Positions 3,261-54,642 of a DNA stretch of 64,000 bases are shown here, one piece after another; position 1 is the first letter of the stretch; each line of letters starts with the position of its first letter. The DNA is taken from NCBI GenBank assembly GCA_964636385.1, contig CAZWSC010000078.1, positions 42,874 to 106,873 on the forward strand. Direction: 5' to 3'. The position numbers were made by a program, and so were the translations under genes. This stretch comes from an uncultured bacterium. GTDB lineage: Bacteria > Eisenbacteria > RBG-16-71-46 > CAIMUX01. Under the pieces are notes generated by a model. That model was given only the letters and a program-made list of their open reading frames with translations, made no database searches and was not told where the DNA came from.

Positions 3261-3302
3261 GGCATGCGATTCCTTCCACGGCCCCACACACCGGGCAGTG
3301 TA

Positions 3303-13119: not shown

Positions 13120-13151
13120 CGCGGCGGACAGGCGATGATCGGGGCCGGGAA

Positions 13152-23968: not shown

Positions 23969-25114
23969 ATGGCAGCTGGACGCAGGAATCGCAAGGACAT
24001 CAGGCAGAAGAACGAGGAGAAGGACAGGCAGACTCTGTCCCTAATCTCCGGGACCGCGGGGGAGATACACACCCGCGTGCTCAAGAGGCGCAAGCCGGAC
24101 CTGCGGTTCCCGGTTCGTGCGTTGTCGAATGTGAGCTACTCGGAGAAGAACGGATACCTGGAGATAGGGAAGGCGAAGAAGGTACGGACACTCACCGTGA
24201 ACACCGTGAAAGCGTTTGCCCAGACGCTGAGAATGATGTCCCTCTCGAAGAGTCTGATCGAGACCAACGACTTCGCGACCAAGAGGGACGCGTACTACCA
24301 GTCGAAGAACTGGGGCGAGGCGATGTTCCAGGATCAGCCCGAGTCGGATACCGTCATGGACGACATCGAGGCCCTCTTCTCTGTTCACAACGTCAGCCGC
24401 GAGCAGCTTCGCTTCATACCGGACGAGCACGGCGGAGCCGTTGCGGGCGAGCTGGTGGTCCTGGATCCCGATCTGGAATCCGGACGCGTCGAACGCATCG
24501 ACTGCACACGATTCGGCTCGGGCGCCTATTCCATCCCGGGTTCCGTGGAACAACTATCCTTCGAGACGGATGCCGGGTTCATCCTGGCCATTGAGACGGG
24601 CGGTATGTTCCAGAGGCTGCAGAATCACAAGTTCTGGGCGAAAGCCAACTGCATCCTGGTGTCGATGGGGGGCGTTCCCACCCGCGCCACCAGGCGGTTC
24701 ATCCGCAAGCTTTCGGACGAGAGGAAGATCCCGGTCTACGCGTTCGTTGACTGCGATCCCTACGGGATCTCCAACATCTACCGCACGCTCAAGGTGGGCA
24801 GCGGCAATGCCGCCCACATCAACCGCTTCTTCTGTGTTCCACAGGCCAGGTTCCTCGGGGTCACGCCGCGCGACATCGTGGAGTACAAGCTCCCGACCCA
24901 TCCCCTGAAGGAGGTGGACGTGAAGCGTGCGAAGGATGCGATAAGAAACGATCCGTTCTTCAGGCACCACAAGCCGTGGGTGAAGGCGATGAGCGAACTC
25001 CTGAAGATGGGTGTTCGCGCCGAACAGCAGGCCCTTGCGAAGTGGGGACTGAACTACGTGATCGAGGAGTACCTGCCGGCGAAGCTGGCAAATCCCAGGC
25101 TGTTCCTGCCCTAG
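23969..25114 (+). CDS. top6A: DNA topoisomerase VI subunit A (Spo11-like, Toprim)
   Basis: Toprim acidic motif YAFVDCDPYGISNIY. Spo11/Top6A-like winged-helix region. AGGAG RBS. Immediately downstream of top6B. Confidence 0.85.
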   Translation: MAAGRRNRKDIRQKNEEKDRQTLSLISGTAGEIHTRVLKRRKPDLRFPVRALSNVSYSEKNGYLEIGKAKKVRTLTVNTVKAFAQTLRMMSLSKSLIETNDFATKRDAYYQSKNWGEAMFQDQPESDTVMDDIEALFSVHNVSREQLRFIPDEHGGAVAGELVVLDPDLESGRVERIDCTRFGSGAYSIPGSVEQLSFETDAGFILAIETGGMFQRLQNHKFWAKANCILVSMGGVPTRATRRFIRKLSDERKIPVYAFVDCDPYGISNIYRTLKVGSGNAAHINRFFCVPQARFLGVTPRDIVEYKLPTHPLKEVDVKRAKDAIRNDPFFRHHKPWVKAMSELLKMGVRAEQQALAKWGLNYVIEEYLPAKLANPRLFLP

Positions 25115-29082: not shown

Positions 29083-30033
29083 TCATCCAGTGGCACCCGG
29101 TCGCGGGGATCTGCCGAAGGCCCTGCGAAGGCCTCTCCCCATGACCGCTGCCAGTCCTCGTTTCGCCTTCATCCTTCGCATCAGTTCCGGGAGGGCGGCT
29201 CGCATTGCATCCTCTCCCGCCTGCACCAGATCATCCACAGCCCAGAAGTTGGCCCAGTGGAAGTCCCCCACGTCGGGTGTCACGACCAGGTCGGCATCCC
29301 TCAGCACCAGCCTGTTCAGACGATCCCGCGCTATCTGGTCTGCGCGCATCAGGATCTCGATGCCGGTCCGGTAGTCGTCCCTGGTGTGGGTTCGTGAGGG
29401 GAGGTCCAGGGCCAGCACGAAATCGGCTCCCAGCTCACGGCAGACGCTCACCGGCACCCGATACGGCCCGCCGCCGTCCACGAGAAGAGCCTCATTCGTG
29501 GCCAGTGGAGGGAAGACGCCGGGGATGGCGCTGCTCGCATACACGGCATCCACCAGCTCTCCGCTCCGGAAGATGCATGGTTCGCCCGTTATCAGATCCA
29601 CCGCTACGCACGCGAACGGGAGACGGAGGTCCTCAACCCGGTCGGTGTCGAAGAACCTTCGCAGTGGGGCGCGAAGCACGGCTGCGTCCTGCAGCGCCGG
29701 AGAGGTGAAGGTGCGGAACTTGAGAACCCGCCGCTGGATCGCATGGCCAAGCTCCAGGATGAGGTTGCGGTCCTTCTCCCCGGGATCATCCTCCTGAAAT
29801 GGCTTCAAGCTCGCTTTCAGTTTCGGGTCTTCGATGTATTCGCGGATCTTTCGGTCAACGGACTCGGCACTGAGCGAATCTGCGTACAGCGCCCCGATTA
29901 TTGCACCCATACTTGTTCCGGCCACGCATGCCGGGCGGACTCCGGCTTCTTCCAGAACGGCGAGCGCGCCGATGTGCGCAAGTCCGCGCGCTCCTCCGCT
30001 GCCCAGCGCCAGCCCCAGGCGAATCACCAGCAC
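29083..30033 (-). CDS. Patatin-like phospholipase
   Basis: GSGGARG oxyanion hole. GTSMG (GXSXG). Catalytic Asp in the DGG motif (LVDGGG). Confidence 0.75.
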   Translation of the reverse strand: MLVIRLGLALGSGGARGLAHIGALAVLEEAGVRPACVAGTSMGAIIGALYADSLSAESVDRKIREYIEDPKLKASLKPFQEDDPGEKDRNLILELGHAIQRRVLKFRTFTSPALQDAAVLRAPLRRFFDTDRVEDLRLPFACVAVDLITGEPCIFRSGELVDAVYASSAIPGVFPPLATNEALLVDGGGPYRVPVSVCRELGADFVLALDLPSRTHTRDDYRTGIEILMRADQIARDRLNRLVLRDADLVVTPDVGDFHWANFWAVDDLVQAGEDAMRAALPELMRRMKAKRGLAAVMGRGLRRAFGRSPRPGATG

Positions 30034-37194: not shown

Positions 37195-39723
37195 CTACAG
37201 CCCGATCCCCAGGAGCGATCCCGCCTGGTAGACAACGGCCGAGATCAGGAACGCCAGCAGGGTAAGGCCGAAGAACTGCATCATGGGCCACTTCCAGGAT
37301 CCACTCTCCTGCCTGGTGACCGCAAACGTGGCCATGCAGGGTGTGCCGATGAGGGTGAAGAGCAGAATGGACAGGCCCGCCAGAGGCGGATACGTGGCGC
37401 GCAGCCTCTCCCGCAGCATCTCCTTGTCCTCGGTGTCGTCCGAACCCACGGAGTGGACGATGCTCAGCTGGGCGACGAAGACCTCCTTTGCCGCAAACGA
37501 GCCGAGAAGCGCGGTCCCGATCTTCCAGTCGAATCCCATCGGGCGGAGAGCCGGCTCCATGAAGCGTCCGATCCTCCCCGCCGTGGAGTGGGCCAGCTCT
37601 TCCGCACCCTTGGACGCCGCAAGCTCCCTCATCGCGTCTTCATGCGGCCCGCGCATCTCATCCAGGTAGCGTACGGCCGCCTCGAAGGTGCCCGGGTCCT
37701 CGAAACGAAGGGCATCCAGCCCTGACTGAAGCGACAGGAGCCTCATGGCTTCGCCACGCGATCCGATCCCCGAATCGCCCAGGAATCCGACGAGTTCATC
37801 GCGCGTGCTCCCGACCAGGCTTGCGGCCGAGAGGAAGGCTGTGAGCCTCTGCCCGCCGGGAAGGCTCTGCAGTGAGTCCAGCGTCGCTTCGAAGCGGGCC
37901 CCGGCGGAGGCGAATCCACCCTCGTGTGGATGGTACAGGGCCTGGGTGCGCTCCATATCCAGCTTGGCGCGGACGGCGGACCGGAGAAGGTCGGAATCCT
38001 CAGGAAGGTTCATGAGATGATTCAGGCTCCCGGCTTTCTCCACCAGTGCGAGCTCGGCTGCGGCCGCTTCCGCATCGTAATCACGCCCGTACTCGGAGAT
38101 GCGCGGGAAGGCGGAGAGCACCCACAGGATCACGGAAATCGCGAGGATGATGGTTCCCGCTTTGCGGAGGTAAAGCCATGCCCGTTCCCACATGTGGATC
38201 AGCATCCCCTTCACGGTGGGCAGGCGATAGGGCGGGACCTCCATCACGAAGGGTGTCGACGGGCCCCTGAATATGGTCGCCCGAAGCAGCTTCGCCAGCA
38301 CGATGGCGAGCACGATCCCGATTATGTATATGAGCCACAGGACCGGGCCCTGCATGTGGGGTGGGAAGAAGGCCGGGATTATCAGTGCGTATATGGTCAA
38401 ACGCGCTCCGCAGCTCATCAGCGGGACAACCATGAGGGTGGTCAGGCGGTCTCTCCGGCTTTCCAGGGTGCGCGTGGCCATCACGGCAGGAACCGTGCAC
38501 CCGAAGCCGATGACCATCGGGATGAAGCTCTTCCCGTGCAGCCCGATCCTGTGCATCAGCCCGTCCAGGATGAAAGCGGCGCGCGCCATGTATCCCGAAT
38601 CCTCCAGCAGCGCGATTGCCAGGAAGAGGATCACTATGTTGGGCAGGAAGACTATCACGCCTCCCACTCCGCCGATGATCCCATCCACGAGTAGCGAGAG
38701 CAGCAGGCTGTCGCTACCCCGGGGCCACAGACTGGTCAGGAATGAGGCCAGGTAGGAGAAACCATGGTCGATTCCGTTCATCAGTGGCTCGCCCAGGGCG
38801 AAGGTGGCATGAAAGACCAGGTACATCATCGCGAGGAAGATGGGTATGCCCAGCGCGCGGTTTGTGAGAACCAGGTCCACGGTGTCCGAAAGGGTGTGCC
38901 TGGTTTCCACCGTGGAACGGACGGCCTCCTGGCAGGCCCCGGATATGAAGCCGTAGCGCCGTTCGGCAATGATCACCTCGGGGTTGTCCCCGAAGACCCT
39001 GCGGATCCTGGCAGCGCCCTTGTCGACGGCATCACGGATTCGGGGGGAGTTCAGCACCTCCCGCACCTGGGGGTCGTTCTCGAGCAGCTTCACGGCCGAC
39101 CACCGCGGGGAAATGCCTGCCGGGGCCGGATGACCCTCGAGTATCTCCACGAGTTTCCCGATCTCCTGCTCGATCTCCCGCCCGTAGTCGACCGTCGGCC
39201 CGTCACCGCCTGTTCCGACCTTCGCGAGGTCGGCGGTGGCCAGGACCGAATCGAGCAAGTCCTCGATCCCCTCGCCCTTCGATCCCACCGTGGGAACAAG
39301 CGGCACTCCGAGGAGGCGTGAAAGGGCATCAAGGTCGAACTCCAGCCCTTCAGCCCTGGCCAGGTCGCTCTTGTTGAGGGCCAGGACCAGGGGGAGGCCG
39401 AGCTCCATCAGTTGTACAGCCAGATAGAGGTTCCGCTCGATATTGGAGGAGTCAACGACATGGACGACCACATCCGGTGGATGGTCGATGAGGAAGTCGC
39501 GGGCCGCGGTCTCTTCCGGGGAGTAGGCGGTCAGGCTGTAGGTGCCGGGGAGATCGACGATGCGGATATCGCGATCCCGGTGCCGCCGCGTCCCCTCGGT
39601 GATCTCCACGGTCACACCGGGGTAGTTGGCAACATGCTGGTGCTTCCCGGTGAGCCGATTGAAGAGGGTGCTTTTCCCGGAGTTCGGGTTTCCGGCCAGC
39701 GCGATCGTTGTGCCTGTGCTCAT
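37195..39723 (-). CDS. feoB: Ferrous iron transporter FeoB (long form, 842 aa)
   Basis: G-protein motifs (ALAGNPNSGKSTLFN; DLPG). Polytopic gate domains. Immediately downstream of feoA. Confidence 0.9.
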   Translation of the reverse strand: MSTGTTIALAGNPNSGKSTLFNRLTGKHQHVANYPGVTVEITEGTRRHRDRDIRIVDLPGTYSLTAYSPEETAARDFLIDHPPDVVVHVVDSSNIERNLYLAVQLMELGLPLVLALNKSDLARAEGLEFDLDALSRLLGVPLVPTVGSKGEGIEDLLDSVLATADLAKVGTGGDGPTVDYGREIEQEIGKLVEILEGHPAPAGISPRWSAVKLLENDPQVREVLNSPRIRDAVDKGAARIRRVFGDNPEVIIAERRYGFISGACQEAVRSTVETRHTLSDTVDLVLTNRALGIPIFLAMMYLVFHATFALGEPLMNGIDHGFSYLASFLTSLWPRGSDSLLLSLLVDGIIGGVGGVIVFLPNIVILFLAIALLEDSGYMARAAFILDGLMHRIGLHGKSFIPMVIGFGCTVPAVMATRTLESRRDRLTTLMVVPLMSCGARLTIYALIIPAFFPPHMQGPVLWLIYIIGIVLAIVLAKLLRATIFRGPSTPFVMEVPPYRLPTVKGMLIHMWERAWLYLRKAGTIILAISVILWVLSAFPRISEYGRDYDAEAAAAELALVEKAGSLNHLMNLPEDSDLLRSAVRAKLDMERTQALYHPHEGGFASAGARFEATLDSLQSLPGGQRLTAFLSAASLVGSTRDELVGFLGDSGIGSRGEAMRLLSLQSGLDALRFEDPGTFEAAVRYLDEMRGPHEDAMRELAASKGAEELAHSTAGRIGRFMEPALRPMGFDWKIGTALLGSFAAKEVFVAQLSIVHSVGSDDTEDKEMLRERLRATYPPLAGLSILLFTLIGTPCMATFAVTRQESGSWKWPMMQFFGLTLLAFLISAVVYQAGSLLGIGL

Positions 39724-39729
39724 CTGCGG

Positions 39730-40131
39730 CTAGCCCACCATGACTCTCTGGGCCACACCGCGGCCCAGGACCACCCTGCTTCCCTTGACAGACACCATGA
39801 ACGGGCCGCGTGATGCATTACGCAGGACCTCGATCTCAGCGCCCGGAACGAGCCCCATTGCGGCAAGACGTGCCGCGCACTCGCGTCCCGTATGGAGGGC
39901 GAGGAGTTTCACCTTTCGTCCGGCGCCGACCATGGCCAGAGGTACTCCCGAAACCCCCGGCCTGGCAGACCGGGCCTCGCCGGGGGGGGGAACGGGGCAT
40001 GGGTTGGGGCCGGATCCGCCTCCATCTCCCTCTGCCGCGCAGGCACGCCAGGAGCAGCCATCGTGCAGCATGCAGTCCCCGGGGACGATCGCGGCGTCTT
40101 CCGCCTCGAAGCGATCATGTTCGCCCGGCAT
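39730..40131 (-). CDS. feoA: FeoA-domain protein with an N-terminal Cys-containing extension
   Basis: C-terminal KVKLLALHTGRECAARLAAMGLVPGAEIEVL...RVVLGRG is a FeoA/SH3-like domain. GGAAGGAGG sits 5 nt before the ATG at 40131, so it would overlap the dtxR stop by 17 nt. N-terminus carries DCMLHDGCSWRAC. Alternative start at 39933. Confidence 0.6.
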   Translation of the reverse strand: MPGEHDRFEAEDAAIVPGDCMLHDGCSWRACAAEGDGGGSGPNPCPVPPPGEARSARPGVSGVPLAMVGAGRKVKLLALHTGRECAARLAAMGLVPGAEIEVLRNASRGPFMVSVKGSRVVLGRGVAQRVMVG

Positions 40132-40630
40132 GCCTGCCTCCTTCCCCGACCTGCTCCGCACAGGCATCGAGGCACGCTTCGCAACGCTCGTCGGGATGGA
40201 AGCCCTCCGATTCCCCTTTCGTCCAGGATGCGTGTGCAATCGGGCACGCTTCGAAGAACTCAGCCAGGTCTACCAGCCTTTCGAGCAGGGAACGCGTCAT
40301 CGCATGTTCCATACGGCATGCAGCTTCGTCAGCCTCATCCTCCTCGATCCGGAGCACACGGACGAAGAAATCCCGGAGGATCTCATGGCGGCGAACGACC
40401 TCGGCACCCAGGGCACGGCCCCTCTCCGTAAGTGTGACCAGGTCATAAGGCGCGTAGTGGATCATTCCCCGGTCAGCCAGGACCCGCAGGGCCCCCGTCA
40501 CTGATGACTGGTTGACCTTGAGCCGGTCGGCTATGTCCTTGGGCCTTGCCGCCTGCTTCCGGGAGACTATGTGGAAGATCGCCTCCAGGTAGTCTTCCTG
40601 GCTGTCGCTCAGCCTTGCTGTCTGTGTCAT
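40115..40630 (-). CDS. DtxR/IdeR-family iron-dependent transcriptional repressor with a Cys-rich C-terminal tail
   Basis: N-terminal wHTH (SDSQEDYLEAIF...VTGALRVLADRGMI). Metal-site residues C-x2-E-H (ACRMEH) as in Fe-responsive DtxR/IdeR. The C-terminal C-x21-C-x2-C-x3-C replaces the SH3-like domain. Confidence 0.8.
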   Translation of the reverse strand: MTQTARLSDSQEDYLEAIFHIVSRKQAARPKDIADRLKVNQSSVTGALRVLADRGMIHYAPYDLVTLTERGRALGAEVVRRHEILRDFFVRVLRIEEDEADEAACRMEHAMTRSLLERLVDLAEFFEACPIAHASWTKGESEGFHPDERCEACLDACAEQVGEGGRHAGRT

Positions 40631-40805
40631 GGGTTACCTCCAGATTCTTCGGCAACCCCAAAACATATGGGACCGCCTAACTCGTCGTCAACCTGTGATG
40701 CAGGGAGAATCGTTCCTGTACGGCCACGCATCCGGTCCGCTTGACGTGGGGGTCCCACAACCCATAGCATGACGTGGGTTTCTGAACCACAACCCTGAGG
40801 AGTCC

Positions 40806-42053
40806 ATGGGCGACACATATCCCCGGACGGGTGAGCCGGCTCCCGACACAGTACTGAAGCCGGCAGACCTCTTCGACAAGTGCTTACGATTCAGGCGAGT
40901 GAGGGATGCCCAGGAAGCGGGCCTGTATCCTTACTTCGTGCCGATATCGGGATCCGAGGGTACGGAGGTCTGGATCGATGGCAGGCGCAAGATCATGCTC
41001 GGCTCGAACAACTACCTGGGCCTGACCCACGATCCCCGGGTGATCGAGGCGGGGGAGAAGGCCGCCCGTCAGTACGGGGCGGGCTGTACCGGAAGCCGCT
41101 TTCTCAACGGCACCCTGGACATCCACGAGAAGCTGGAGGAGGAGCTGGCGGGCTTCATGCACAAGCCTGCCGCAATAGTCTTCTCCACGGGATTCCAGAC
41201 GAATCTCGGGATCATCTCCGCCCTGGTCGGGCGCGACGATTCGGTCATCATCGACAAGCTGGATCACGCCTGCATCGTGGACGGCGCGGTGCTCTCGCAG
41301 GGTGCCACGTACCGGTACAGCCACAACGACATGAACCACCTCGAGCGGATGCTGCAGAAGGCGCGGAGGGAGAACCCCAAGGGCGGGATCCTGGTGGTGG
41401 TGGACGGGATCTTCAGCATGGAGGGTGACCTGGCCGATCTCCCCCCGATCGTAGATCTCTGCAGACAGCAGGGTGCGCGCCTGCTGGTTGACGAGGCTCA
41501 CTCGCTTGGGGTCATGGGCCCGACGGGGGCCGGCCTGGCCGAGCACTTCGGCCTGTCGGAGCAGGCCGATCTCCTGATGGGAACATTCAGCAAGTCGTTT
41601 GCATCCATCGGCGGGGTTGCAGCCGGGGATGCCGAGGTCATCAGCTACATCAAACACATGGCCAGGACCATGATCTTCAGCGCATCGATGCCTCCGTTCG
41701 CGGTTGCATCCGTGCGGGAGTGTCTTCGGATCCTGCGCGAGGAGCCGGAACGACGGGAGCATCTGTGGCGTAACACCTCCCGCTGGAAGGAAGGTCTTCT
41801 GTCCCTCGGGTTTAACATCGGCGGCACCAACTCACCGGTCATCCCGATCATCGTGGGTGAGACTGAGAACACCTTCGTCTTCTGGAAGGTGCTCTTTGAG
41901 ATGGGGATATTCTCGAATCCGGTCATCCCCCCTGCAGTTCCGGAGCGGACCTCGAGGATCAGGACCAGCCTTATGGCCACTCACACGGACGAGCTGCTGG
42001 ACGAGGCCCTGGAGATTTTCAAGCAGGCCGGCAGGCGTGTCGGCCTGATATAG
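40806..42053 (+). CDS. spt: Alpha-oxoamine synthase, serine palmitoyltransferase-like (PLP-dependent)
   Basis: AOS family with the PLP-Lys motif GTFSKSFASIGG (TFSKS is Spt-like; BioF has LSKA, Kbl has LGKA). Gene context with bCerS/CerR-like genes. Confidence 0.7.
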   Translation: MGDTYPRTGEPAPDTVLKPADLFDKCLRFRRVRDAQEAGLYPYFVPISGSEGTEVWIDGRRKIMLGSNNYLGLTHDPRVIEAGEKAARQYGAGCTGSRFLNGTLDIHEKLEEELAGFMHKPAAIVFSTGFQTNLGIISALVGRDDSVIIDKLDHACIVDGAVLSQGATYRYSHNDMNHLERMLQKARRENPKGGILVVVDGIFSMEGDLADLPPIVDLCRQQGARLLVDEAHSLGVMGPTGAGLAEHFGLSEQADLLMGTFSKSFASIGGVAAGDAEVISYIKHMARTMIFSASMPPFAVASVRECLRILREEPERREHLWRNTSRWKEGLLSLGFNIGGTNSPVIPIIVGETENTFVFWKVLFEMGIFSNPVIPPAVPERTSRIRTSLMATHTDELLDEALEIFKQAGRRVGLI

Positions 42054-42161
42054 TCCGGGCTGGCCCGGCACGGCATCCGGATCATGTACTCCGGGTGTCG
42101 CGTACGAGAACTCATCGATCGCCCGGGTCGGGGACCGATTCTTCAGCACAGGCGGACACGG

Positions 42162-43307
42162 ATGCCCATTCCGGAGATAGAGATGGTCCCGGTCGAATCC
42201 GGTTCGGATCTCAGGCGCTTCGTGAAGTTCCCATGGAGCGTCTACCGGGACGACCCCAACTGGGTCCCTCCACTGATCGCGGATACCTGCAGGATGCTTA
42301 CGCCCGGCAAACACCCCTTCCACGAGCATGCGGATGTCCAGTGCTTCCTTGCCGTGCGGACCGGTTCGGCGCGGCCCGGACGTGAGGTGATCGGCAGGAT
42401 TGCCGCCATTGTCAACCACCTGCACAATGAGGTTCACGGGGAGAAGACCGGCTTCTTCGGGTTCTTCGAGACCCTGCCCGATCCGACTGTGCCGCCTTTC
42501 CTGTTCGAGGCTGCTGGAGCCTGGCTTCGCGGGAAGGGCATGGAAACCATGCGCGGCCCCGCCTCGTTCTCAGGCAACGAGGAGTGGGGGCTCCTGATCG
42601 ACGGATTCGACCGTCCGCCCATGGTCAAAATGAGCTACAACCCGCCCGGTTACGCCGCCCATGTCGAGTCGTATGGTTTCCGAAAGGCCAGGGATCTTGT
42701 GGCCTACTATCTGGACAACGTGGAGCCTCCGGCCCGTATCGTGCGCGCCGCCGACCGGATGGCCAGGCAGGCGAAGATCACGGTCCGCACAATGGACATG
42801 AAGCACTTTCGCAGGGAGGTGGAACTGGTCCGCGAAATCTACAACGGCGCATGGGAGAAGAACTGGGGTTTCGTCCCGATGACCGAGGCCGAGATCGACC
42901 ATATGGCCAAGGAACTCAAGCCGGTGGTAGACCCGAACCTCGTGGTGTTTGCGGAGGCCGAAGGTAAGCCTGTAGGCTTCGCATTCGCACTGAAGGATGT
43001 GAACCAGGCCTTGAGAAGGGCGAACGGCAGGCTCTTCCCCTTCGGTCTCATCAGGATGCTCATCGCCTCCCGGAAGATACGGGAGGTTCGCGTTCTGACC
43101 CTGGGTGTGCTTCCGGAGTACCGGAACCGGGGTGTGGATTCCCTCATGTCCCTTGCCCTCTTCCGCAAAGGCAGGGAAGGCGGTTATGCAGCCGGGGAGT
43201 TCTCATGGATTCTGGAAGACAACAGGGCAATGCGCAGGGTACTGGAACATATGGGGGCGAGGGTGTACAAGACCTACAGGCTCTATGACATTCCTCTGAA
43301 GCCATGA
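42162..43307 (+). CDS. GNAT-fold N-acyltransferase, bacterial ceramide synthase (bCerS)-like
   Basis: C-terminal acyl-CoA N-acyltransferase motif LGVLPEYRNRGVDSLM. ~380 aa. Located between the Spt-like and CerR-like genes. Start uncertain (42084, 42162 or 42183). Confidence 0.5.
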   Translation: MPIPEIEMVPVESGSDLRRFVKFPWSVYRDDPNWVPPLIADTCRMLTPGKHPFHEHADVQCFLAVRTGSARPGREVIGRIAAIVNHLHNEVHGEKTGFFGFFETLPDPTVPPFLFEAAGAWLRGKGMETMRGPASFSGNEEWGLLIDGFDRPPMVKMSYNPPGYAAHVESYGFRKARDLVAYYLDNVEPPARIVRAADRMARQAKITVRTMDMKHFRREVELVREIYNGAWEKNWGFVPMTEAEIDHMAKELKPVVDPNLVVFAEAEGKPVGFAFALKDVNQALRRANGRLFPFGLIRMLIASRKIREVRVLTLGVLPEYRNRGVDSLMSLALFRKGREGGYAAGEFSWILEDNRAMRRVLEHMGARVYKTYRLYDIPLKP

Positions 43308-44407
43308 AGACTGCCTCTCCAGGGGTGGAGCGCCCGCGGCGCCGGGAACATGCGGCCCGGGACGGGATGCACGGCGAATCCGGTGAGCAGAGTCTCTTCG
43401 CCAGGTCCCACAGGGTTCTGGTCACGGGCGGCACCGGGTTCGTCGGATCGCACCTCGTGGAGAGACTGGTCGCGAGGGGATACAGGGTTCGACTGCTGGT
43501 CCGCAGGACGAGCAGCCTTCACTGGCTTGAAGGAATCCCGGTTGAGCTGGCCTATGGAGATGTCAGGGACAAGGCCTCCCTCTGCGGAGCCTGTGTCGGC
43601 GTCCGCAGCGTGTTCCACTTCGGCGGCCTGACCACGGCATGGCGCTCAAGGGACTTCTTCGATGTGAACGAGGATGGCACCAGGAACCTGGCCGAAGCGC
43701 TGGCCGAGAGAGGTGACCCCGGAGGCTTCTTCGTATACTGCAGCAGCCTTGCGGCAGCCGGTCCGTCGGTTCCGCTGGAGAGGGATCCGGAACCGATCCG
43801 CACCGAGGCGGATCCCGTCACCCCTGTCAGTGCATACGGCCAGAGCAAGCTGGCCGGCGAGGAGGCTCTGCGGGACCTTGCCGATGCGCACAGTACCTTC
43901 CGGCACCTGATCCTGAGGCCGCCAGCGGTCTACGGCCCCCGGGACGGTACAGTTCTCAACCTCTTCCGGCTGGTGAAGCACGGCATTCTGCCGGTGCCCG
44001 ATGTCCCGGTCAGCAGGCTCAGTCTTGTCTACGTGGGCGATCTCGTAGACGCGGCAGTGAGGGGAGCCGATGCCGGTGCGCGCGGAACCTACTACATTAC
44101 CGACGGCGGGCTGTATACCTGGCTGGGCGTTGGCAGGCGGCTGGCGGAGTTCATGGATGTTCAGGTTCGCGTCATCCGGGTCCGCAGGTTCCCGGCCGGG
44201 GTTGCGGCTGCGGGGTCTGAACTCTGGGGCCTGATCACGCGGAATCGTGGCGTCTTCGACCGCGCCAAGGTGGACGATATATGGCAGCCACACTGGACGT
44301 GTTCGCCGGAGAAGGCGCGTAGAGACTGGGGGTATGAAGCCCGCTTCACTCTCGACCTGGGACTCGAAGAAACGCTCAGCTGGTACAGGGAAAACCAATG
44401 GCTCTGA
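43304..44407 (+). CDS. NAD(P)-dependent epimerase/dehydratase-family SDR, ceramide reductase (CerR)-like
   Basis: VLVTGGTGFVGSHL Rossmann motif. YGQSK catalytic YxxxK. ATGA overlap with the upstream gene. An alternative start at 43367 is possible. Confidence 0.6.
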   Translation: MKTASPGVERPRRREHAARDGMHGESGEQSLFARSHRVLVTGGTGFVGSHLVERLVARGYRVRLLVRRTSSLHWLEGIPVELAYGDVRDKASLCGACVGVRSVFHFGGLTTAWRSRDFFDVNEDGTRNLAEALAERGDPGGFFVYCSSLAAAGPSVPLERDPEPIRTEADPVTPVSAYGQSKLAGEEALRDLADAHSTFRHLILRPPAVYGPRDGTVLNLFRLVKHGILPVPDVPVSRLSLVYVGDLVDAAVRGADAGARGTYYITDGGLYTWLGVGRRLAEFMDVQVRVIRVRRFPAGVAAAGSELWGLITRNRGVFDRAKVDDIWQPHWTCSPEKARRDWGYEARFTLDLGLEETLSWYRENQWL

Positions 44408-45405
44408 TGAGGAGGACCGGTACTGTGGTCCTGCCGGAGACGATCGGCTTTTCGGTCGGCAGAACGCGGGGGTACAACCCGACCGATATCCTCGCCATGG
44501 TCTATCTGGCGGGTGTCAGCATCCTGATCCTGGTGGCGGGACGGGAGGCTGCCGGTTGGGGCGTGCGCCTGGCGGTGTATGCCGCCCTGCTGGGTGTGGT
44601 GGCGCTGCTGCGTTTCGTTCCCAGGCGGCTACCGCGCGTGCTCCAGTTCCTGCGCGAGTCCTACACTCTCGCCGCCCTCCCGGTGGCTTACGGTGACCTG
44701 GACTGGCTGAACCGGCTCATCAGCACCGGCTATCACGACGAGCTTGTGATGCGATGGGACCTCGCGCTGTTCGGATCGCATCCTCATCTGTACCTGAGCA
44801 GGATCCTCCCGTATCCGTTCCTCAGCGATCTGCTTCACGCCTGCTATCTTCTCTACATCGCGCTCGTGCCGGTTCTTGGGATAACGCTCTACCTCCAGAA
44901 CAGGGAGCACGCGTTCAGGGTGCTTGCCACCACGGTCACGCTGACCATGTACTCGTGCTACGCGTTCTTCATCGCCCTTCCGGTGCAGGGGCCCTACGAG
45001 TTCCATGGTCGGCCGGAGGGTGTTCCGGGGCTGGTTCCGGACCTGGTGTATGCGATGCTCGACAAGGGATCATCGGTCGGAACGGCCTTTCCCTCTTCGC
45101 ACGTGGCGGGTGCGATCGCGGTTGCGGTCATGTCCACGTGGTTCTCGAGAAGGCTATCTTATGTGATGGTGGTCCTGGCCCTGGGGATTGGAGTTGCAAC
45201 AGTCTACGGTGGATTCCACTACGCCATCGACGCCGTTGCCGGCTTCGCATACGGGCTGGCTCTATCGCTTGCCGGGCCCAGGATTCATGCCGCCTTTCTC
45301 AGGCAGGCCAGGATTCCCCATGTGCATTTCCGCTTTCCACACCTGCGGCTTCGTTGGAAGGAAGCCAGGGCACAGGCAGTGGACCGCCGGCGAAACATCA
45401 TGTGA
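44398..45405 (+). CDS. PAP2-superfamily integral membrane protein (possible sphingolipid head-group transferase or phosphatase)
   Basis: PAP2 motifs C2 PSSH (FPSSHVAGA) and C3 (GFHYAIDAVAG). Six TM helices. 10-nt overlap with the upstream gene. Confidence 0.7.
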   Translation: MALMRRTGTVVLPETIGFSVGRTRGYNPTDILAMVYLAGVSILILVAGREAAGWGVRLAVYAALLGVVALLRFVPRRLPRVLQFLRESYTLAALPVAYGDLDWLNRLISTGYHDELVMRWDLALFGSHPHLYLSRILPYPFLSDLLHACYLLYIALVPVLGITLYLQNREHAFRVLATTVTLTMYSCYAFFIALPVQGPYEFHGRPEGVPGLVPDLVYAMLDKGSSVGTAFPSSHVAGAIAVAVMSTWFSRRLSYVMVVLALGIGVATVYGGFHYAIDAVAGFAYGLALSLAGPRIHAAFLRQARIPHVHFRFPHLRLRWKEARAQAVDRRRNIM

Positions 45406-45607
45406 ATCTCCCCCCGCGCAGTGCTCCGCAGATTCTGATAGAATGCCCCCTCAGCCTTCTATCCGATGCGGGCTGATTCGTGTGGCGGAGGAGAAGGCGG
45501 CGGACACAATGCGATCGAGGCCGGTCCAGTGCAGGCAGAATCGCGGAACCGTGGTCAGGATGGCGGATCGTATCCGGCTCTCATGCCGGGGGAGTCGGGA
45601 GGTCTGA

Positions 45608-46759
45608 GTGAAGGTTCTTCACCTTGACATGGGTCAGGAGTGGAGAGGGGGACAACAGCAGGTTCTCTATCTCACGGAGGGGCTCGAGAAGCGGGGCGTT
45701 GTCTCGGTGGCGGCGCTGGTTCAGGGCAGTCCCCTCGCGAAGAGGCTTCGCGATGAGGATCTTCCGCTGATCGAGCTGCCGGGAGGATCGCCATTCTCAC
45801 CGCGCGTGGTCAGGGCGCTGCACAGGATCCTGGCCGACCGCAACTGGGACGTCATCCACACTCATACGGCCCATGCGCACACACTGGCGCACCTGGCCTT
45901 CCGTCTGCCGCCCGCGCGCCCGTATCACAAGCCTGCGCTCTTCGTCTCGCGACGCGTCGATTTCGTGCCGGCGCGGGATCCCCTGACCCGCCTGAAGTAC
46001 TCCGCTCCGGACCAGCACTTCATCTGCGTGTCCGATGCGATCCGCAGGGTTCTTCACTCCTACGGCGTGCCCGGGGCATTCCTCCACGTGGTGCACTCCG
46101 GCGTGCCGATTCCGGGGTGCCGGAGGGAAGACGATCCACTTCCATCCGAGATCGATCCGTCCTTGCGGATGACTGAGCGGTGCGATCTGCGTGCGGAGCT
46201 TGGCGTCCCGAAGGATGCGGTTCTCCTGGGGAACATTGCCCAGTTCGTGGAGCACAAGGGTCACAGGTTCCTGCTCTCGGCAATGGGTAAGGTCCATTGC
46301 GAGATTCCCTCGGTACATCTGGTGCTTCTCGGTTCCGGCAAGCTGGAGAGGGATCTTCGCAGGCAGGCGGCGGAGCTCGGGCTGGGCGACGCGCTTACCT
46401 TCGCCGGGTTCCGGCCCCAGGTCAGGAGGTACCTTCCGGCAATGGATCTGTTCGTGCTGTCCTCCGTGGAGGAAGGGCTCTGCACATCGCTCCTCGACGC
46501 CCAGGCGGTCGGGCTGCCCGTGGTTGGGACAGAGGCCGGGGGGATTCCGGAGGCGATCAGCGCGGGACACACCGGCCTCCTGGCCCGCACAAGGGATTCG
46601 GACAGTCTGGCCGACGCGATCCTGGAGCTGCTTCGCTCTCCCGACACGCTGCAGAGCATGTCGCGCTCCGGACCGGGCTGGGTGAGGGAGCGGTTCTCAG
46701 TGGACCAGATGGTGGACGGGACACTCGCCGTCTACAGGGAAGTGCTCGGGGCGGGCTGA
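45608..46759 (+). CDS. Glycosyltransferase family 4 (GT-B, retaining)
   Basis: EEGLCTSLLDAQAVGLPVVGTEAGGIPE (EX7E-type GT4 motif). GTG start with GGGAGG 5 nt upstream. Confidence 0.8.
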   Translation: MKVLHLDMGQEWRGGQQQVLYLTEGLEKRGVVSVAALVQGSPLAKRLRDEDLPLIELPGGSPFSPRVVRALHRILADRNWDVIHTHTAHAHTLAHLAFRLPPARPYHKPALFVSRRVDFVPARDPLTRLKYSAPDQHFICVSDAIRRVLHSYGVPGAFLHVVHSGVPIPGCRREDDPLPSEIDPSLRMTERCDLRAELGVPKDAVLLGNIAQFVEHKGHRFLLSAMGKVHCEIPSVHLVLLGSGKLERDLRRQAAELGLGDALTFAGFRPQVRRYLPAMDLFVLSSVEEGLCTSLLDAQAVGLPVVGTEAGGIPEAISAGHTGLLARTRDSDSLADAILELLRSPDTLQSMSRSGPGWVRERFSVDQMVDGTLAVYREVLGAG

Positions 46760-50491: not shown

Positions 50492-51874
50492 TCAGAGCAG
50501 GCCGCCGGCGCGCAGGCCCTGTATCCACAGGGCGACAAGGAGGCACAGGAAGGCTATCCTTCTCGCCATCCCGACGCGGCCGAGGAGCGCGACTCCGGCG
50601 AGTCCCCGTCCGGCAAGCACGGCAATGAACGGCAGGCTCAGCAGGCGAGCGTCGCCCATGCGGCCAGTGACGACCCCGACGGCCATGATGCTCACGATCA
50701 GAAGCGCCAGTGCGCGCTCAATCCCTCCTGCTCCGCGCTGCAGCACCAGCCAGGAAAGCGCGAGGGTGAGGACCGTGCCGTAGAACAGGGCCTGGAACAG
50801 CCTGAACCAGTGCAACCTGTACGGGAACGGATCAGTTGAGCCAGAGTCGCTCATTGGTGAGAAGGCGAAGAATCGGGTAATGCGACTGGACCATACGGAC
50901 GCCAGTCTGCCGGGATGTGTGGCAGCGTATCCGAGGAAATCCTGGAACGCGATCCTGTTCTCTGTGAGGACCATGTTGTCAGGAGCCCTGGCTTCTGCTC
51001 CCGGCAGGGAGTACCTGGCGACCGGCATGTCCGGGACGTTGGCAGCCCGCAGCCTGAGGCCCCATGTGCTCTCCACAAAGACTGGGTGGCCGTGCAGCCT
51101 TGAGGAACGAACGGTCCAGGGGGCGATTACGCAGAAGGCGGCGATAAGCAGGAAGCCGCGGCGCATCCACAGGTCCAGGCAGTTGCCGATCCGGAATGGT
51201 GCGTGACGGCCGATGCGGTGGATCCCGATGTGGGGTTCATCTGCATAGTCGTGAATCCCTCTGACGGCGATCAGGACCAGGACTGGGAAGATGAGGCCAG
51301 TACGCCCGAGGATCGAGCACCCGAGCAGTGCGCCGGCCATAAGGCTCTCCCCGATCCCCGGGATTCCTGGACGGCGGAACCAGGCCAGTACACCAATCGA
51401 CAGCATCAGGCCCAGAATGAGCACCGGCGTAAGGTGCCGGGTTTCGGCCACGGCCTGCGGGAAGAAGGCGATGATGAGGCCGGCCAGAAGGGCGTCACGT
51501 CGCTGAAGCCCGGCGATCCGGGCCAGGGCAACAACCGGCACCACGAGCAGCGATCCGATCAGGGCCTGGGACAGGAGAACGGTGTGGGGGGTATAGCCAT
51601 AGATCCTGTAGAGGATCCCGAGGAAGTACGGGTAGAGCGGGGGAATGCTGGACGAAGGACCAAAGCCGAGTCCGGATGCGATACGCAGGGCATAGCTGTC
51701 AATGACCTGGCCATCTCCGGGGAACGGTGGTGAGTGTTGCAGCACGGCCCACAGACGTACGGCAAGGGCCAGGATCACTAGAAGGAGCACATGGATATCC
51801 CGGGGTGCGCTGTAACCTGCTCCAGACCCGGCAGTGCTGTCTCCATCTCCGACGCTGTTCAACTCATCCCGCAT
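50492..51874 (-). CDS. GT-C fold glycosyltransferase, ArnT/PMT (GT39/GT83)-like membrane protein
   Basis: ~11 TM helices with an N-terminal periplasmic loop, characteristic of ArnT/PMT-like enzymes. ATG at 51874. Confidence 0.55.
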   Translation of the reverse strand: MRDELNSVGDGDSTAGSGAGYSAPRDIHVLLLVILALAVRLWAVLQHSPPFPGDGQVIDSYALRIASGLGFGPSSSIPPLYPYFLGILYRIYGYTPHTVLLSQALIGSLLVVPVVALARIAGLQRRDALLAGLIIAFFPQAVAETRHLTPVLILGLMLSIGVLAWFRRPGIPGIGESLMAGALLGCSILGRTGLIFPVLVLIAVRGIHDYADEPHIGIHRIGRHAPFRIGNCLDLWMRRGFLLIAAFCVIAPWTVRSSRLHGHPVFVESTWGLRLRAANVPDMPVARYSLPGAEARAPDNMVLTENRIAFQDFLGYAATHPGRLASVWSSRITRFFAFSPMSDSGSTDPFPYRLHWFRLFQALFYGTVLTLALSWLVLQRGAGGIERALALLIVSIMAVGVVTGRMGDARLLSLPFIAVLAGRGLAGVALLGRVGMARRIAFLCLLVALWIQGLRAGGLL

Positions 51875-52026
51875 CACGGCCGATTCTACCGGCCCCCCGG
51901 ACCCGGCGAAAGCGGGTAAGCCAGGGGGCAGGCCGGTCGTCCGATTAGGTAGATCCGTCGGGGATGCAGAAGGGGCGGCGATAGGACCGCCGCCCCTCTT
52001 GTCCTGGCTGGATGAAGCGTCAGGGG

Positions 52027-54642
52027 TTACCGCACCCTGAGCAGCCTCACACTCTCCGCCTTGTCCCCTGCCGTCAACCGCGCGAAGTAGACGCCGGTGG
52101 CGACAGAGTTGCCGGCGGCATCCCGTCCGTCCCATGACACCTGATGCGTACCGGCGGGCAGTTCGCCCTCGGAGAGGACGCGAATCTGCCGCCCTGTGGC
52201 GTCATACACCACAACCGAGGCGTCCCGGGCCTCCGGCAGCCCGAAGCGCAGGGTCGTGGATGTGGAGAAAGGATTCGGCTGAGCGGCTTCCAGGCTGACT
52301 ACGGCAGGAACTCCACCGCGGTCCGGCACGCTGCTGGACTCGAACACCGTCAGCCGGATCTGGAGGTGGTCATTCTGGCGCGGGTTGTAGGAGTTCTTCA
52401 GGGTGCCCCGGTAGTTGCCGTCCTCCAGGCCGTGCGAGGAGAAGGTCAGCTGGATGTCCATGCTCTCGCCTTCCGGGATGGAGCCGCTTGAGGGCTCGAA
52501 CGAGAACCAGGAGTCGCTCCCGAAGGTGATGAAGCTGAGGTCGAACTCGAGAACCGATCCGGGATCACCGACGTTGGTGATGGTCAGTGTATCGTGGTGA
52601 ACCGTCATCCCCGGAATGGTGATCTCGAAGACCTCCTCGTTGTACATGGCCGAAGGAACCAGGTCATAGTCGACCAGAATCGTGCTCAGGTAGGGAACTC
52701 TGTTGTAGGCGGTCACGACGAGGTCGATCTCCTCGCCCTCCTGCAGTTCGCCCGTGATCTCGATGACTGCATTGCCGCCGGCATCGGTGAAGCCGGAGCC
52801 GAGGTACATCCCGTTGTAGCTGAGTGCGCAGAGCGCGTCGGCGATGCCGGGTACCTGCAGCGAGTAGGTGGAGGCCTCCGGATCGACGAAGTCTTCGTAG
52901 ACGACCGTCATCGGCTCGGCCGGCTTGTTGCGGAAGCGCAGGGCCGGGTCGCCGAAAAGAGTCCATGCCCGGAACTCGCTTATGCCGGAGCTTCCGTAGA
53001 TATCCATCATCCAGGAGGAACCGTTGAAGCAGATGGAGCCGTAGGTGCGGGCGACATCATCGTAGATCAGCCGGTTGAACTCGATCTGGCCGGCCATCGG
53101 CGGATTCCAGGACATGTTGATGGTGGACGCGTACATGCCTGTCGCGCCCGTGGGCTGGCCGTTGTGGGAGGCGCGCAGCCAGGTCTCGGCGAAACAGGTT
53201 GAATTGGCGAAGTTGCCGTTAACGCAGGCCACGCTGCAGATAATCGGCAGCATGTGTGTGTTTTGAAGGGCGTTTACGTGCGAGTTCGAGAAGCCGGTGG
53301 TCGACCAGCTGGTCGTACTGCCGTGGCCGGTGTAGTTGATGATGGAACGACCGTCGTGCAGAGCGGCCGTTACCTGGCTGGCGGTCGCGCCATATCCGTA
53401 GAACTGATCGATGTGAGTGTATCCGTAGGCCAGCAGGTGGGAGCGGATGAGGTCGACGTGCTGGTGATCGTACAGGCCACCATGGCCCGGTCCCTCGGTC
53501 GAGGCGATCCCGGTGCCCTTCGGGTACCAGTCGTTGCCGGCCAGGAGCGGCTCCTTCTCGTAGTTGACGGTGCGCAGGACCTGGGTCTGCACGTGCGAGA
53601 CGTTCTCGGAACTGAAACGGCCGACGAAGATGTCGGGGTAGCTGTCGCTGCCGGCAAGCAGTGAATAGCTTGGATCCGAGGCAACCGAGCCGACATACAT
53701 CGGCGGGATCTGAGGGGCATCCCCGACCAGCAGCACAAACCCGAGGCGCGGGTCACTCGACTGATCATAGAGATTCTGGATGTAGGCCTTGATCTGATTG
53801 GAGGTGGAGCCGATCTGAGACTTGAGCACCAGTTCGGTGGGGATACCCATCTGGTTACGCCACTCCACCAGAGGCTGCATGGCGCTTTCGAAGCCGTCGA
53901 AGCAGACGATCAGCATCTTGCCGACCTCGGACACCAGCTGATAACGGAGGTTCGCGCCGTAGTTAAGAAAGCGCTCCCGGTAGATGTCGGCGAACTCGGG
54001 CATGACGCTCACGAGGTCGGAGGCGCGCTCGAGTGCGTTGATCCTGGCAGGTCCGCCGGCAACGAGCTCGACCAGCATGTGCGTGCAGACATCCAGGGTG
54101 CCGGTCGACGGCGTGTAGCGGATCGGGTTGAACACGACCGTCTGGCCCCGGAAGTCGCGCAGGATGTATGGATCGCGGGTGAAGGCTTCATCCGCGGGGA
54201 ATGTCCCGGACGAGTTGTAGAACTCGCCGAAAGCATAGGGCACGGTCTCGGGATCGACAGAGCGGAGCAGGTTCCCCTTCGAGGGCACAGGGATGATGCC
54301 GTCAAAGGTGGTGTACTCCGTCGATATGACCCGCAGCTCCATCTCCCGATCCTCAGGGATAATCACACTCCCCGCCGCCAGGGGCAGCTCGGGGAGTCCC
54401 TCCTCGAGGTGCAGGCCCTGGCCAGGCAGGCTGATCCGGGCATACGTGGCTCCATCGATGACAACGTCGGTCATCTCGAATCCGTCCACCCGCAACTCGA
54501 GCACTATCCGGTCAGGAGTAGATTCGACCAATGACACGACTGCCCCGTCCCGCCCTCCGAGGCTGACCCAGGTCGCGAGCGCCGGAGCGGCCGCGATGAG
54601 AATGCCGAGGACCAGGATGATCGAGGTCGAAAGCTTCTTCAT
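52027..54642 (-). CDS. Secreted peptidase C25 (gingipain-like) with a T9SS C-terminal sorting domain
   Basis: Signal MKKLSTSIILVLGILIAAAPALA. Gingipain propeptide-like N-domain. Catalytic YTGHGS (His) and ICSVACVNGNF (Cys). CTD PNPFSTSTTLRFGLPE...VSWDGRDAAGNSVATGVYFARL...LLRVR. Confidence 0.8.
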   Translation of the reverse strand: MKKLSTSIILVLGILIAAAPALATWVSLGGRDGAVVSLVESTPDRIVLELRVDGFEMTDVVIDGATYARISLPGQGLHLEEGLPELPLAAGSVIIPEDREMELRVISTEYTTFDGIIPVPSKGNLLRSVDPETVPYAFGEFYNSSGTFPADEAFTRDPYILRDFRGQTVVFNPIRYTPSTGTLDVCTHMLVELVAGGPARINALERASDLVSVMPEFADIYRERFLNYGANLRYQLVSEVGKMLIVCFDGFESAMQPLVEWRNQMGIPTELVLKSQIGSTSNQIKAYIQNLYDQSSDPRLGFVLLVGDAPQIPPMYVGSVASDPSYSLLAGSDSYPDIFVGRFSSENVSHVQTQVLRTVNYEKEPLLAGNDWYPKGTGIASTEGPGHGGLYDHQHVDLIRSHLLAYGYTHIDQFYGYGATASQVTAALHDGRSIINYTGHGSTTSWSTTGFSNSHVNALQNTHMLPIICSVACVNGNFANSTCFAETWLRASHNGQPTGATGMYASTINMSWNPPMAGQIEFNRLIYDDVARTYGSICFNGSSWMMDIYGSSGISEFRAWTLFGDPALRFRNKPAEPMTVVYEDFVDPEASTYSLQVPGIADALCALSYNGMYLGSGFTDAGGNAVIEITGELQEGEEIDLVVTAYNRVPYLSTILVDYDLVPSAMYNEEVFEITIPGMTVHHDTLTITNVGDPGSVLEFDLSFITFGSDSWFSFEPSSGSIPEGESMDIQLTFSSHGLEDGNYRGTLKNSYNPRQNDHLQIRLTVFESSSVPDRGGVPAVVSLEAAQPNPFSTSTTLRFGLPEARDASVVVYDATGRQIRVLSEGELPAGTHQVSWDGRDAAGNSVATGVYFARLTAGDKAESVRLLRVR

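Follow-up and report, generated by a model that had tools for sequence, protein, structure and literature searches.

A probable sphingolipid biosynthesis operon with an Aur1-like PAP2 gene in an uncultured Eisenbacteria bacterium

The DNA analysed here, a stretch of 64 kb from contig CAZWSC010000078.1 of an uncultured Eisenbacteria bacterium (assembly GCA_964636385.1; hereafter the window), carries a compact gene cluster predicted to encode an α-oxoamine synthase (AOS), an N-acyltransferase of the GNAT fold, a short-chain dehydrogenase/reductase (SDR) and an integral membrane enzyme of the PAP2 superfamily, followed by a glycosyltransferase of family GT4 (Table 1). Taking together the observed homologies, the fold assignments and the synteny of the first four genes, which is conserved across genomes, the region is probably an operon for the de novo synthesis of a bacterial sphingolipid, the product presumably bearing a phosphate-linked head group. 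The AOS appears to represent a serine palmitoyltransferase (Spt), the GNAT protein a member of the bCerS family and the SDR a CerR-like reductase, and the PAP2 protein is a candidate for the enzyme transferring the head group. A preceding sequence-only reading had described five open reading frames (ORFs) of these classes on the plus strand; all five are present, and Pfam domains of the respective classes were detected in each of the five proteins. The third-position GC content of the five genes (0.76-0.81, at a GC content of the sequence of 63%) resembles that of the other real genes of the window.

Conservation of the gene cluster

A scan with the alignment of the GNAT family, using one genome per species, revealed no fewer than 593 confirmed loci; for the 80 best of these the gene neighbourhood was analysed. 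These 80 loci belong to Eisenbacteria, Gemmatimonadota (including Longimicrobiales and Palauibacter), Zixibacteria, Planctomycetota and Poribacteria as well as to Ignavibacteria, Cytophagia, Myxococcaceae, Acidobacteriota and others. The AOS gene adjoins the GNAT gene in 66 of them, 65 times in the same orientation and directly upstream of it; six further loci could not be assessed due to contig ends. An SDR gene was detected within 3 kb of the GNAT gene in 54 of the 80 loci and directly downstream in 38, while a PAP2 homologue was found near it in 34 loci, mostly of Eisenbacteria and Gemmatimonadota. All four genes occur together in 32 of the 80 loci. In Eisenbacteria, Gemmatimonadota and some Acidobacteriota the gene of the PAP2_3 type is located directly behind spt-bcerS-cerR.

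The AOS as a predicted serine palmitoyltransferase

In comparison with the equivalog models of NCBIfam the AOS reached its highest score with the Spt model SerpalmtaseCFB (NF047600; 518.6 bits), followed by SerpalmtaseBetaP (NF047599; 411.6 bits), bioF (388.8 bits), Kbl (367.9 bits), SerpalmtaseAlphaP (330.1 bits) and 5-aminolevulinate synthase (ALAS; 244.7 bits). Spt was also preferred in the PDB, where the enzyme of Sphingobacterium multivorum (3a2b, 8guh) was matched with 430.7 bits and the enzymes other than Spt with clearly lower scores (BioF/Kbl-type enzyme, 272; Kbl, 263; cysteate acyltransferase, 257; BioF, 222; ALAS, 187 bits). The AOS and this Spt share 52% identity over 385 aligned residues, including the GTFSKS motif with the pyridoxal phosphate-binding lysine, and the Pfam domain Aminotran_1_2 spans residues 61-403 of the AOS, a fold-type I domain of full length. 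The identity to Spt of Escherichia coli BL21 amounts to 41%. Judged by these comparisons the AOS groups with Spt rather than with BioF or Kbl, as the sequence-only reading had proposed.

That the AOS represents BioF or Kbl among unrelated neighbours, the region thus serving biotin or threonine metabolism, appears extremely improbable. The corresponding models give 389 and 368 bits, scores of a kind to be had with any AOS, but they are exceeded by those of the Spt models and structures by 130-170 bits. Neither bioA, bioB, bioD and tdh nor other genes of biotin synthesis or threonine degradation, which had been named beforehand as evidence that would speak against Spt, were detected within the 64-kb window; its sole class-III aminotransferase (62639-63856, minus strand) is an ornithine aminotransferase and not BioA. 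Taking furthermore into account that AOS and GNAT genes are adjacent in 65 of the 80 genomes and occur as fused proteins (see below), the identity of the AOS as BioF or Kbl was rejected as effectively refuted.

The score remains, however, below the cut-offs of the Spt equivalog models (518.6 versus 640 bits for NF047600 and 411.6 versus 500 bits for NF047599), which weighs against serine as the substrate, so that a different amino acid is possible. In this case the AOS would condense alanine/glycine, lysine or cysteate with acyl-CoA, and GNAT and SDR would complete a 1-deoxyceramide, a lysine-ceramide or a sulfonolipid of the N-acyl-capnine type. The cysteate-C-fatty acyltransferases are recognisable relatives of the AOS (236-257 bits in the PDB), and a study of the Black Sea reports ceramides of the 1-deoxy and lysine types and puts forward Spt-like enzymes using other amino acids (PMC11334938). 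Nevertheless, a lipid derived from an amino acid other than serine seems unlikely given the 52% identity and 430 bits shared with a structurally solved and characterised Spt, compared with 257 bits for the cysteate enzyme, and the lack of a cysteate synthase or similar gene in the window. An Spt-like protein whose phylum is not among the seed taxa of the models is the most fitting description of the AOS, and serine is retained as its predicted substrate.

With regard to the acyl donor, only the spt genes of α-, β- and γ-proteobacteria have been reported to co-occur with genes encoding AcpR and AasR. A tblastn search with both proteins of E. coli BL21 did not reveal any homologue in the window or in the 80 related loci, in agreement with the earlier remark that the cluster lacks genes for an acyl carrier protein (ACP) and an acyl-ACP synthetase. 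This absence fits the published co-occurrence rule, and due to it the enzyme is predicted to be of the Spt type found in Bacteroidota and δ-proteobacteria, for which the use of acyl-CoA is presumed from the type of Spt.

The GNAT protein as a member of the bCerS family

The proteobacterial sphingolipid cluster is present in its entirety in E. coli BL21(DE3), where yghO is the counterpart of the Caulobacter gene CC_1154 and ECD_02852 that of CC_1164 (PMC9386255). The E. coli reference proteins were taken from this region of the BL21(DE3) genome (L084; NC_012971.2, 2989282-2997066). The GNAT protein of the window is 38% identical to YghO from end to end (380 of 381 aa, E 9e-90). This similarity, as close as can be expected between phyla, places the protein in the YghO/CC_1154 (bCerS) family as previously suggested. 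The comparison with CC_1154, which according to earlier work cited in PMC11324152 and PMC9386255 is needed for the formation of dihydroceramide, is an indirect one through YghO and the published identity table, in which YghO (ECD_02850) and CC_1154 share 44% identity (E 1e-107, 98% coverage; PMC9386255 supplement).

Domain databases contribute little to this assignment. Pfam gave a weak match of Acetyltransf_1 to the C-terminal half of the GNAT protein only, and a search against NCBIfam gave none. YghO has no family match in NCBIfam either and ECD_02852 only a generic one with HpnA in the first place; therefore, a missing NCBIfam match is uninformative for bCerS and CerR. A sequence search of the PDB with the GNAT protein yielded noise apart from one tandem GNAT at E 0.01. 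The best PDB folds for its AlphaFold2 model (pLDDT 88) were the tandem GNATs 2wpw, 3tt2, 5kf1, MshD and Eis. The family is very large; a threshold of E<=1e-30 gathers 2,974 representative clusters.

Two proteins (P0140, 780 aa; P0249, 648 aa) combine an N-terminal AOS domain with a C-terminal GNAT domain of the YghO/bCerS type, and no fusion of Spt with an SDR was found among the fusion proteins inspected. The AOS-GNAT fusions together with the gene order suggest that the GNAT protein takes over the product of Spt directly. An order whereby the long-chain base becomes acylated and then reduced has been argued for in Caulobacter (PMC11087976); from the domain architecture we infer that the fusions lend this disputed order independent genomic support.

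A further protein of the family (P0132, 784 aa) apparently consists of two tandem GNAT units. In a metagenome-assembled genome (MAG) of the Myxococcaceae (L061), two paralogous genes of the YghO/bCerS type (10001-11122 and 12257-13381), whose products are 48% and 42% identical to the GNAT protein of the window, flank one SDR gene, which suggests two N-acyltransferases with different acyl specificities.

The SDR as a CerR-like reductase

The SDR matched the Pfam family Epimerase (E 8.5e-34) and contains the motifs GGTGFVG at residue 42 and YGQSK (YxxxK) at residue 178. It shares 28% identity with ECD_02852 over 336 alignment columns (BLASTP, E 2e-28). For comparison, CC_1164 (CerR) and ECD_02852 are 34% identical (E 7e-38), and the accepted CerR counterparts are mutually only 31-40% identical (PMC9386255 supplement).

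Several points weigh against a firm assignment to CerR. In a phmmer search the SDR scored 84.9 bits with ECD_02852 compared with 90.7 bits with a putative oxidoreductase of the PDB (3wj7), and HpnA was the top NCBIfam model for both the SDR of the window and ECD_02852, so that CerR is not singled out by sequence alone. Moreover, by inspection the SDR lacks a hydrophobic signal sequence ahead of its Rossmann motif (residue 37); CerR of Caulobacter is reported to be a periplasmic protein peripherally bound to the membrane (PMC11087976). The E. coli counterpart ECD_02852 likewise begins directly at the Rossmann motif, and a periplasmic location may not be a defining property of the family.

The genomic context is more specific. 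When ECD_02852 was used as the query against all ORFs of the 80 loci with a length of 150 aa or more, the top 53 (75-150 bits) were SDRs located beside the AOS/GNAT pair, and the remaining ORFs did not exceed 45 bits. The SDR is thus CerR-like, resting on synteny more than on the pairwise score: the resemblance to CerR claimed by the sequence-only reading holds as far as the match to ECD_02852 and the conserved linkage are concerned, but it is qualified by the higher score of 3wj7.

The PAP2 enzyme and the predicted head group

The PAP2 protein matched the Pfam family PAP2_3 (PF14378) with 60.7 bits at a cut-off of 27 over residues 117-289 and contains the motifs "FPSSH" and "GFHYAIDAVAG". In two independent alignments of 31-32 orthologues FPSSH (H226), H265, D269 and PVxGP were found to be invariant, the latter histidine and aspartate taking the form H..xD..G within "GFHYAIDAxAG". 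The phosphatase motifs KxxxxxxRP (C1) and SR of C3 are not conserved among these orthologues. H226 and H265/D269 presumably correspond to the catalytic residues of Aur1.

The closest solved structure is the inositol phosphorylceramide (IPC) synthase Aur1 (9ivc, 9vj4), to which the PAP2 protein is structurally more similar over its full length than to PAP2 phosphatases. The sequence identity to Aur1 amounts to about 15-16%, with recognisable pairs of motifs between the orthologue consensus and yeast Aur1 (FPVAGPRY/FPAAPPWY, AFPSSH/AFPSLH and HYAVDA/HYFVDL); FPVQGP was likewise aligned with FPAAPP and HYAIDA with HYFVDL of Aur1, and one homologue has been named "inositol phosphorylceramide synthase" automatically by NCBI. 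Since Aur1 is the nearest structure and the phosphatase motifs are missing, the earlier proposal of a head-group enzyme is strengthened, and the PAP2 protein is most likely a transferase of a phospho-head group to ceramide, putative as this function is.

Its main rival is a lipid phosphate phosphatase acting on ceramide-1-phosphate, a sphingoid-base phosphate, lipid A or undecaprenyl diphosphate, in which case the cluster would end at ceramide or recycle phosphorylated intermediates. This possibility is favoured by the membership in the PAP2 superfamily, by the catalytic His/His/Asp common to phosphatases and transferases, and by the best single-sequence match in NCBIfam, an undecaprenyl-diphosphate phosphatase (E 5.9e-7). 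In a profile search of the PDB, PgpB and LpxE likewise matched formally better (E 5e-4 and 4e-3) than Aur1, but these matches were short and C-terminal, whereas the alignment with Aur1 was of full length; its marginal E value (0.024) weighs against the transferase. Based on the missing phosphatase motifs and the nearest structure we regard a phosphatase as the less probable function, yet as one deserving attention.

BT_1522, a bacterial homologue of Aur1, is a proven phosphoinositol-dihydroceramide synthase (PMC9246714). The PAP2 protein scored merely 16.8 bits (E 0.0034) with the model of BT_1522 (NF052609; cut-off 480), and no inositol-synthesis genes were detected near the PAP2 gene in the window or in the loci of Gemmatimonadota; both findings weigh against the proposed assignment. 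Judged by its sequence it is a distant relative of BT_1522 and not an orthologue. Due to the lack of inositol-pathway genes nearby, the donor of the head group is left as phosphatidylethanolamine (PE), phosphatidylglycerol (PG) or phosphatidylinositol (PI).

Conserved genes downstream of the PAP2 gene in Gemmatimonadota encode an extracytoplasmic function (ECF) sigma factor, a PDZ protein and LuxC- and LuxE-like proteins. In 6-7 genomes of Gemmatimonadota, the genes for the LuxE-like acyl-protein synthetase (L035, 12424-13596) and the LuxC-like acyl-CoA reductase (L018, 16959-18545) recur downstream of the sphingolipid cassette at a distance of about 6-7 kb; they could be involved in the metabolism of fatty aldehydes or fatty alcohols.

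The GT4 glycosyltransferase

The GT4 protein comprises the Pfam domains Glyco_transf_4 and Glycos_transf_1 and carries EGLCTSLLD at residue 282, an EX7D variant of the EX7E motif. If all five genes formed one pathway, it would glycosylate ceramide or its phospho-head group, the product being a glycosphingolipid or else a glycosyl-phosphosphingolipid, for instance one resembling mannosyl-IPC. The gene is located on the same strand as the preceding four without a terminator-like site being detected between it and the PAP2 gene, and it is kept behind the PAP2 gene, followed by RNase H, in a relative of about 83% identity from another sample (L086). GT4 is a retaining family holding known ceramide glycosyltransferases, and the best relatives of the protein in the PDB, besides BshA, are the inositol-lipid enzymes PimB' and MshA.

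Other points speak against such a pathway. The family is very large, and only one of 22 GT4 enzymes of Bacteroides fragilis acts on ceramide (PMC9692976); the best NCBIfam matches of the protein are exopolysaccharide and bacillithiol enzymes. The gene is separated from the PAP2 gene by a gap of about 200 nt, and none of the 80 genome loci, those of other Eisenbacteria included, was found to carry a GT4 homologue beside the cassette; in a more distant Eisenbacteria genome the PAP2 gene is followed by a hybrid histidine kinase instead. All five genes serving a single pathway is therefore rather unlikely, and participation of GT4 in the pathway is possible but unsupported. Since the linkage of the gene to the cluster is limited to close relatives, a glycosylated product remains a guess. 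The sequence-only reading had predicted a glycosylated or phosphorylated sphingolipid, of which the phospho-head group is favoured by the present analysis and the sugar is not.

We consider it still more doubtful that the PAP2_3 proteins behind spt-bcerS-cerR form an undescribed clade of bacterial phosphosphingolipid synthases apart from BT_1522 and that GT4, in addition, glycosylates the head group. If this applied, Eisenbacteria, Gemmatimonadota and some Acidobacteriota would possess a self-contained "phosphoceramide operon" of four genes, and the bacterium studied here would form a glycosyl-phosphosphingolipid analogous to the mannosylated and glycosylated inositol phosphorylceramides (MIPC/GIPC) of fungi and plants. 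To our knowledge, a lipid of this kind has not been reported in bacteria.

Predicted pathway

The activities of all proteins of the cluster are assigned by homology, and we likewise infer how the steps are ordered, which amino-acid and acyl substrates are used, what the head group is and what role, if any, GT4 plays. Spt would condense L-serine with a long-chain acyl-CoA to 3-ketosphinganine, a dedicated ACP being unnecessary for this type of Spt. The tandem-GNAT enzyme of the YghO/bCerS family would then N-acylate the long-chain base, and the CerR-like extended SDR would reduce the 3-keto group with NAD(P)H to dihydroceramide. The gene order spt-bcerS-cerR and the Spt-GNAT fusions fit this sequence of acylation first and reduction second as it has been proposed for Caulobacter. 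The Aur1-like PAP2_3 enzyme would subsequently move a phospho-alcohol from a glycerophospholipid (PE, PG or PI) onto the 1-hydroxyl group of ceramide, releasing diacylglycerol and forming a phosphosphingolipid of the ceramide phosphoethanolamine (CPE), CPG or IPC type. In a fifth step GT4 might decorate the lipid, or it may equally be an unrelated enzyme of the cell envelope.

Comparison with known systems

The genes of the ceramide pathway were defined in Caulobacter in 2021-22. The cluster of the window encodes the same three enzyme families as Caulobacter (Spt CC_1162; bCerS CC_1154/CCNA_01212; CerR CC_1164/CCNA_01222, an NDUFA9-like extended SDR) and E. coli BL21(DE3) (spt, yghO, ECD_02852), with the same predicted chemistry leading from serine and an acyl thioester to 3-ketosphinganine, its N-acylation and keto-reduction. 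However, AcpR and AasR are part of these systems and absent here, and while bcerS or yghO is located apart or divergently in Caulobacter and E. coli, spt, bcerS and cerR are contiguous and partly overlapping in the window. The SDR comprises 367 aa compared with 304 aa in the Caulobacter/E. coli system, and unlike the E. coli BL21 cluster with its LptF/G paralogues, the window contains neither such paralogues nor head-group genes of the CPG type.

With Spt of S. multivorum and other Bacteroidota (3a2b, 8guh; NF047600) the AOS shares the GTFSKS motif and the 52% identity already mentioned, without an ACP or acyl-ACP synthetase partner in the window, but it stays beneath the equivalog cut-off of that group (519 versus 640 bits). 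The spt, bcerS and cerR genes of Bacteroidota are reported as scattered (PMC11334938), whereas they are clustered here. In contrast to yeast Aur1 and BT_1522, the PAP2 enzyme has no Kei1-like partner, inositol-phosphate synthase or PI synthase gene nearby in the window.

A further parallel is provided by MAGs from the Black Sea, where gene clusters combining Spt-like, bCerS and CerR functions were predicted for 38 phyla (Ding et al., ISME J 2024, PMC11334938). This study describes the same kind of co-localised cassette of three genes in uncultured, mostly anaerobic or sediment bacteria; as far as its main and supplementary text is accessible, it mentions neither Eisenbacteria, Gemmatimonadota or Zixibacteria nor an associated PAP2 or Aur1-like gene. 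Since such clusters have already been reported from 38 phyla, the locus has to be regarded as a further case of a known pathway, and the sequence-only reading overstated its novelty. A search of the accessible literature found no report of sphingolipids in Eisenbacteria or Gemmatimonadota. The locus stands out by its compactness, the operonic Aur1-like gene and its host lineage, but a specialist would hardly be surprised by it.

It adds a well-resolved, contiguous spt-bcerS-cerR-PAP2 cluster from a candidate phylum without cultured members and lends support to the view that sphingolipids occur widely in bacteria other than Bacteroidota and Proteobacteria. YghO of E. coli offers an easy sequence anchor for the recognition of bCerS; bCerS and CerR were not matched by any NCBIfam model of their own, and Pfam yields generic matches to the GNAT and SDR superfamilies. 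The Aur1-like enzyme beside ceramide genes in at least 34 genomes represents a compact and testable candidate for a bacterial phosphoceramide synthase, and lipids of this kind could be sources of sedimentary sphingolipid biomarkers.

The BL21(DE3) cluster (L084) comprises yghO and genes for a fatty acyl-AMP ligase, an NAD-dependent epimerase-family protein and an ACP as well as spt and lptF/lptG paralogues. Since BL21(DE3) thus carries a complete annotated cluster of the sphingolipid type, the expression of sphingolipid genes in this strain has an endogenous background.

Gene layout and genomic neighbourhood

Table 1. Features of the predicted sphingolipid cluster and of its upstream flank (positions within the window)
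Feature	Position	Strand	Length	Remark
spt (AOS), predicted	40806-42053	+	415 aa	GTFSKS; class confirmed by Pfam
bcerS-like N-acyltransferase, predicted	42162-43307	+	381 aa	tandem GNAT fold, YghO/CC_1154 family
cerR-like extended SDR	43304-44407	+	367 aa	NAD(P)-dependent epimerase/dehydratase family
PAP2_3 (Aur1/Ipt1-like) integral membrane enzyme	44398-45405	+	326-335 aa	putative ceramide phospho-head-group transferase
GT4 glycosyltransferase	45608-46759	+	376-383 aa	GT-B fold; pathway membership uncertain
Sigma-70-like promoter candidate	40741-40770	+		TTGACG, 18 nt, TAGCAT; consensus scan, weak
DtxR-family metal-dependent repressor	40115-40630	-		divergent from spt
FeoA	39730-40239	-		divergent from spt
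FeoB	37195-39723	-		divergent from spt

The GNAT and SDR genes overlap by 4 nt (ATGA), and an overlap of 10 nt between the SDR and PAP2 genes results if the latter starts with the ATG at 44398; both overlaps count toward an operon structure. The start/stop overlaps on which the sequence-only reading had relied for translational coupling thus exist at these two junctions, but the AOS and GNAT genes are separated by 108 nt, and a gap likewise separates PAP2 and GT4. For the GNAT gene an upstream ATG at 42084 was considered and rejected, as the homologues and the gene call of the JGI point to 42162. The JGI call places the start of the PAP2 gene at 44425 (326 aa), whereas homologues of 335 aa with 83-88% identity fit 44398. 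The GT4 gene presumably starts with the GTG at 45608, which is preceded by GGGAGG, compared with 45629 in the JGI call. A consensus scan of the 175-bp region between the divergent DtxR-family gene and spt found two sigma-70-like sites where 1.0 would be expected by chance. Rfam gave no match across the window.

Among named relatives, MAGs of Candidatus Eisenbacteria come closest for the AOS, GNAT and PAP2 genes, with identities of 77% (AOS) and 67% (GNAT) to MFD01476.bin.1.183. The host is therefore most likely an Eisenbacteria-like bacterium of the FCB group, which agrees with the C25 and S8 peptidases of the window described below. Upstream of spt, genes for a DtxR-family repressor, FeoA and FeoB are encoded on the opposite strand, and convergent genes for RNase H, PmbA/TldD and a PMT_2 glycosyltransferase follow downstream. 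Iron regulation has been linked to sphingolipids via fur in Caulobacter (PMC9393093). However, since the Feo/DtxR neighbourhood is not conserved in other Eisenbacteria, where an asparagine synthase gene is found upstream of spt in one locus (L087), a link to the sphingolipid cluster was rejected. The PMT_2 gene, encoding a dolichyl-phosphate-mannose-type/ArnT-like membrane glycosyltransferase (50492-52135, minus strand), is found 4 kb downstream of the cluster. The more distant Eisenbacteria locus L087 likewise has a PMT/PMT_2 gene (532-1035), about 3.4 kb upstream of spt, and PMT_2 may be a recurring neighbour of the sphingolipid cluster. A gene for a patatin-like phospholipase (29083-30033, minus strand) is located 11 kb upstream of the cluster.

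The window furthermore contains two radical-SAM genes (988-2178, plus strand; 2208-3287, minus strand) and a gene pair predicted to encode alanine dehydrogenase/PNT-like and saccharopine dehydrogenase proteins (4607-7323, plus strand), for which no NCBIfam match at E<=1e-20 was found. The adjoining genes for subunit B (22103-23899, plus strand; Topo-VIb_trans and HATPase_c) and subunit A (23969-25114, plus strand; TOP6A/Spo11 Toprim and TP6A_N) of topoisomerase VI encode a type IIB topoisomerase, an enzyme characteristic of archaea and plants that bacteria seldom possess. Two large proteases of the secreted type, a C25 gingipain-like peptidase (52027-54642, minus strand) and an S8 subtilase with CarboxypepD_reg (59372-62278, minus strand), each end in an FlgD_ig domain, which we take to be a possible sorting signal for type IX secretion as typical of the FCB group.

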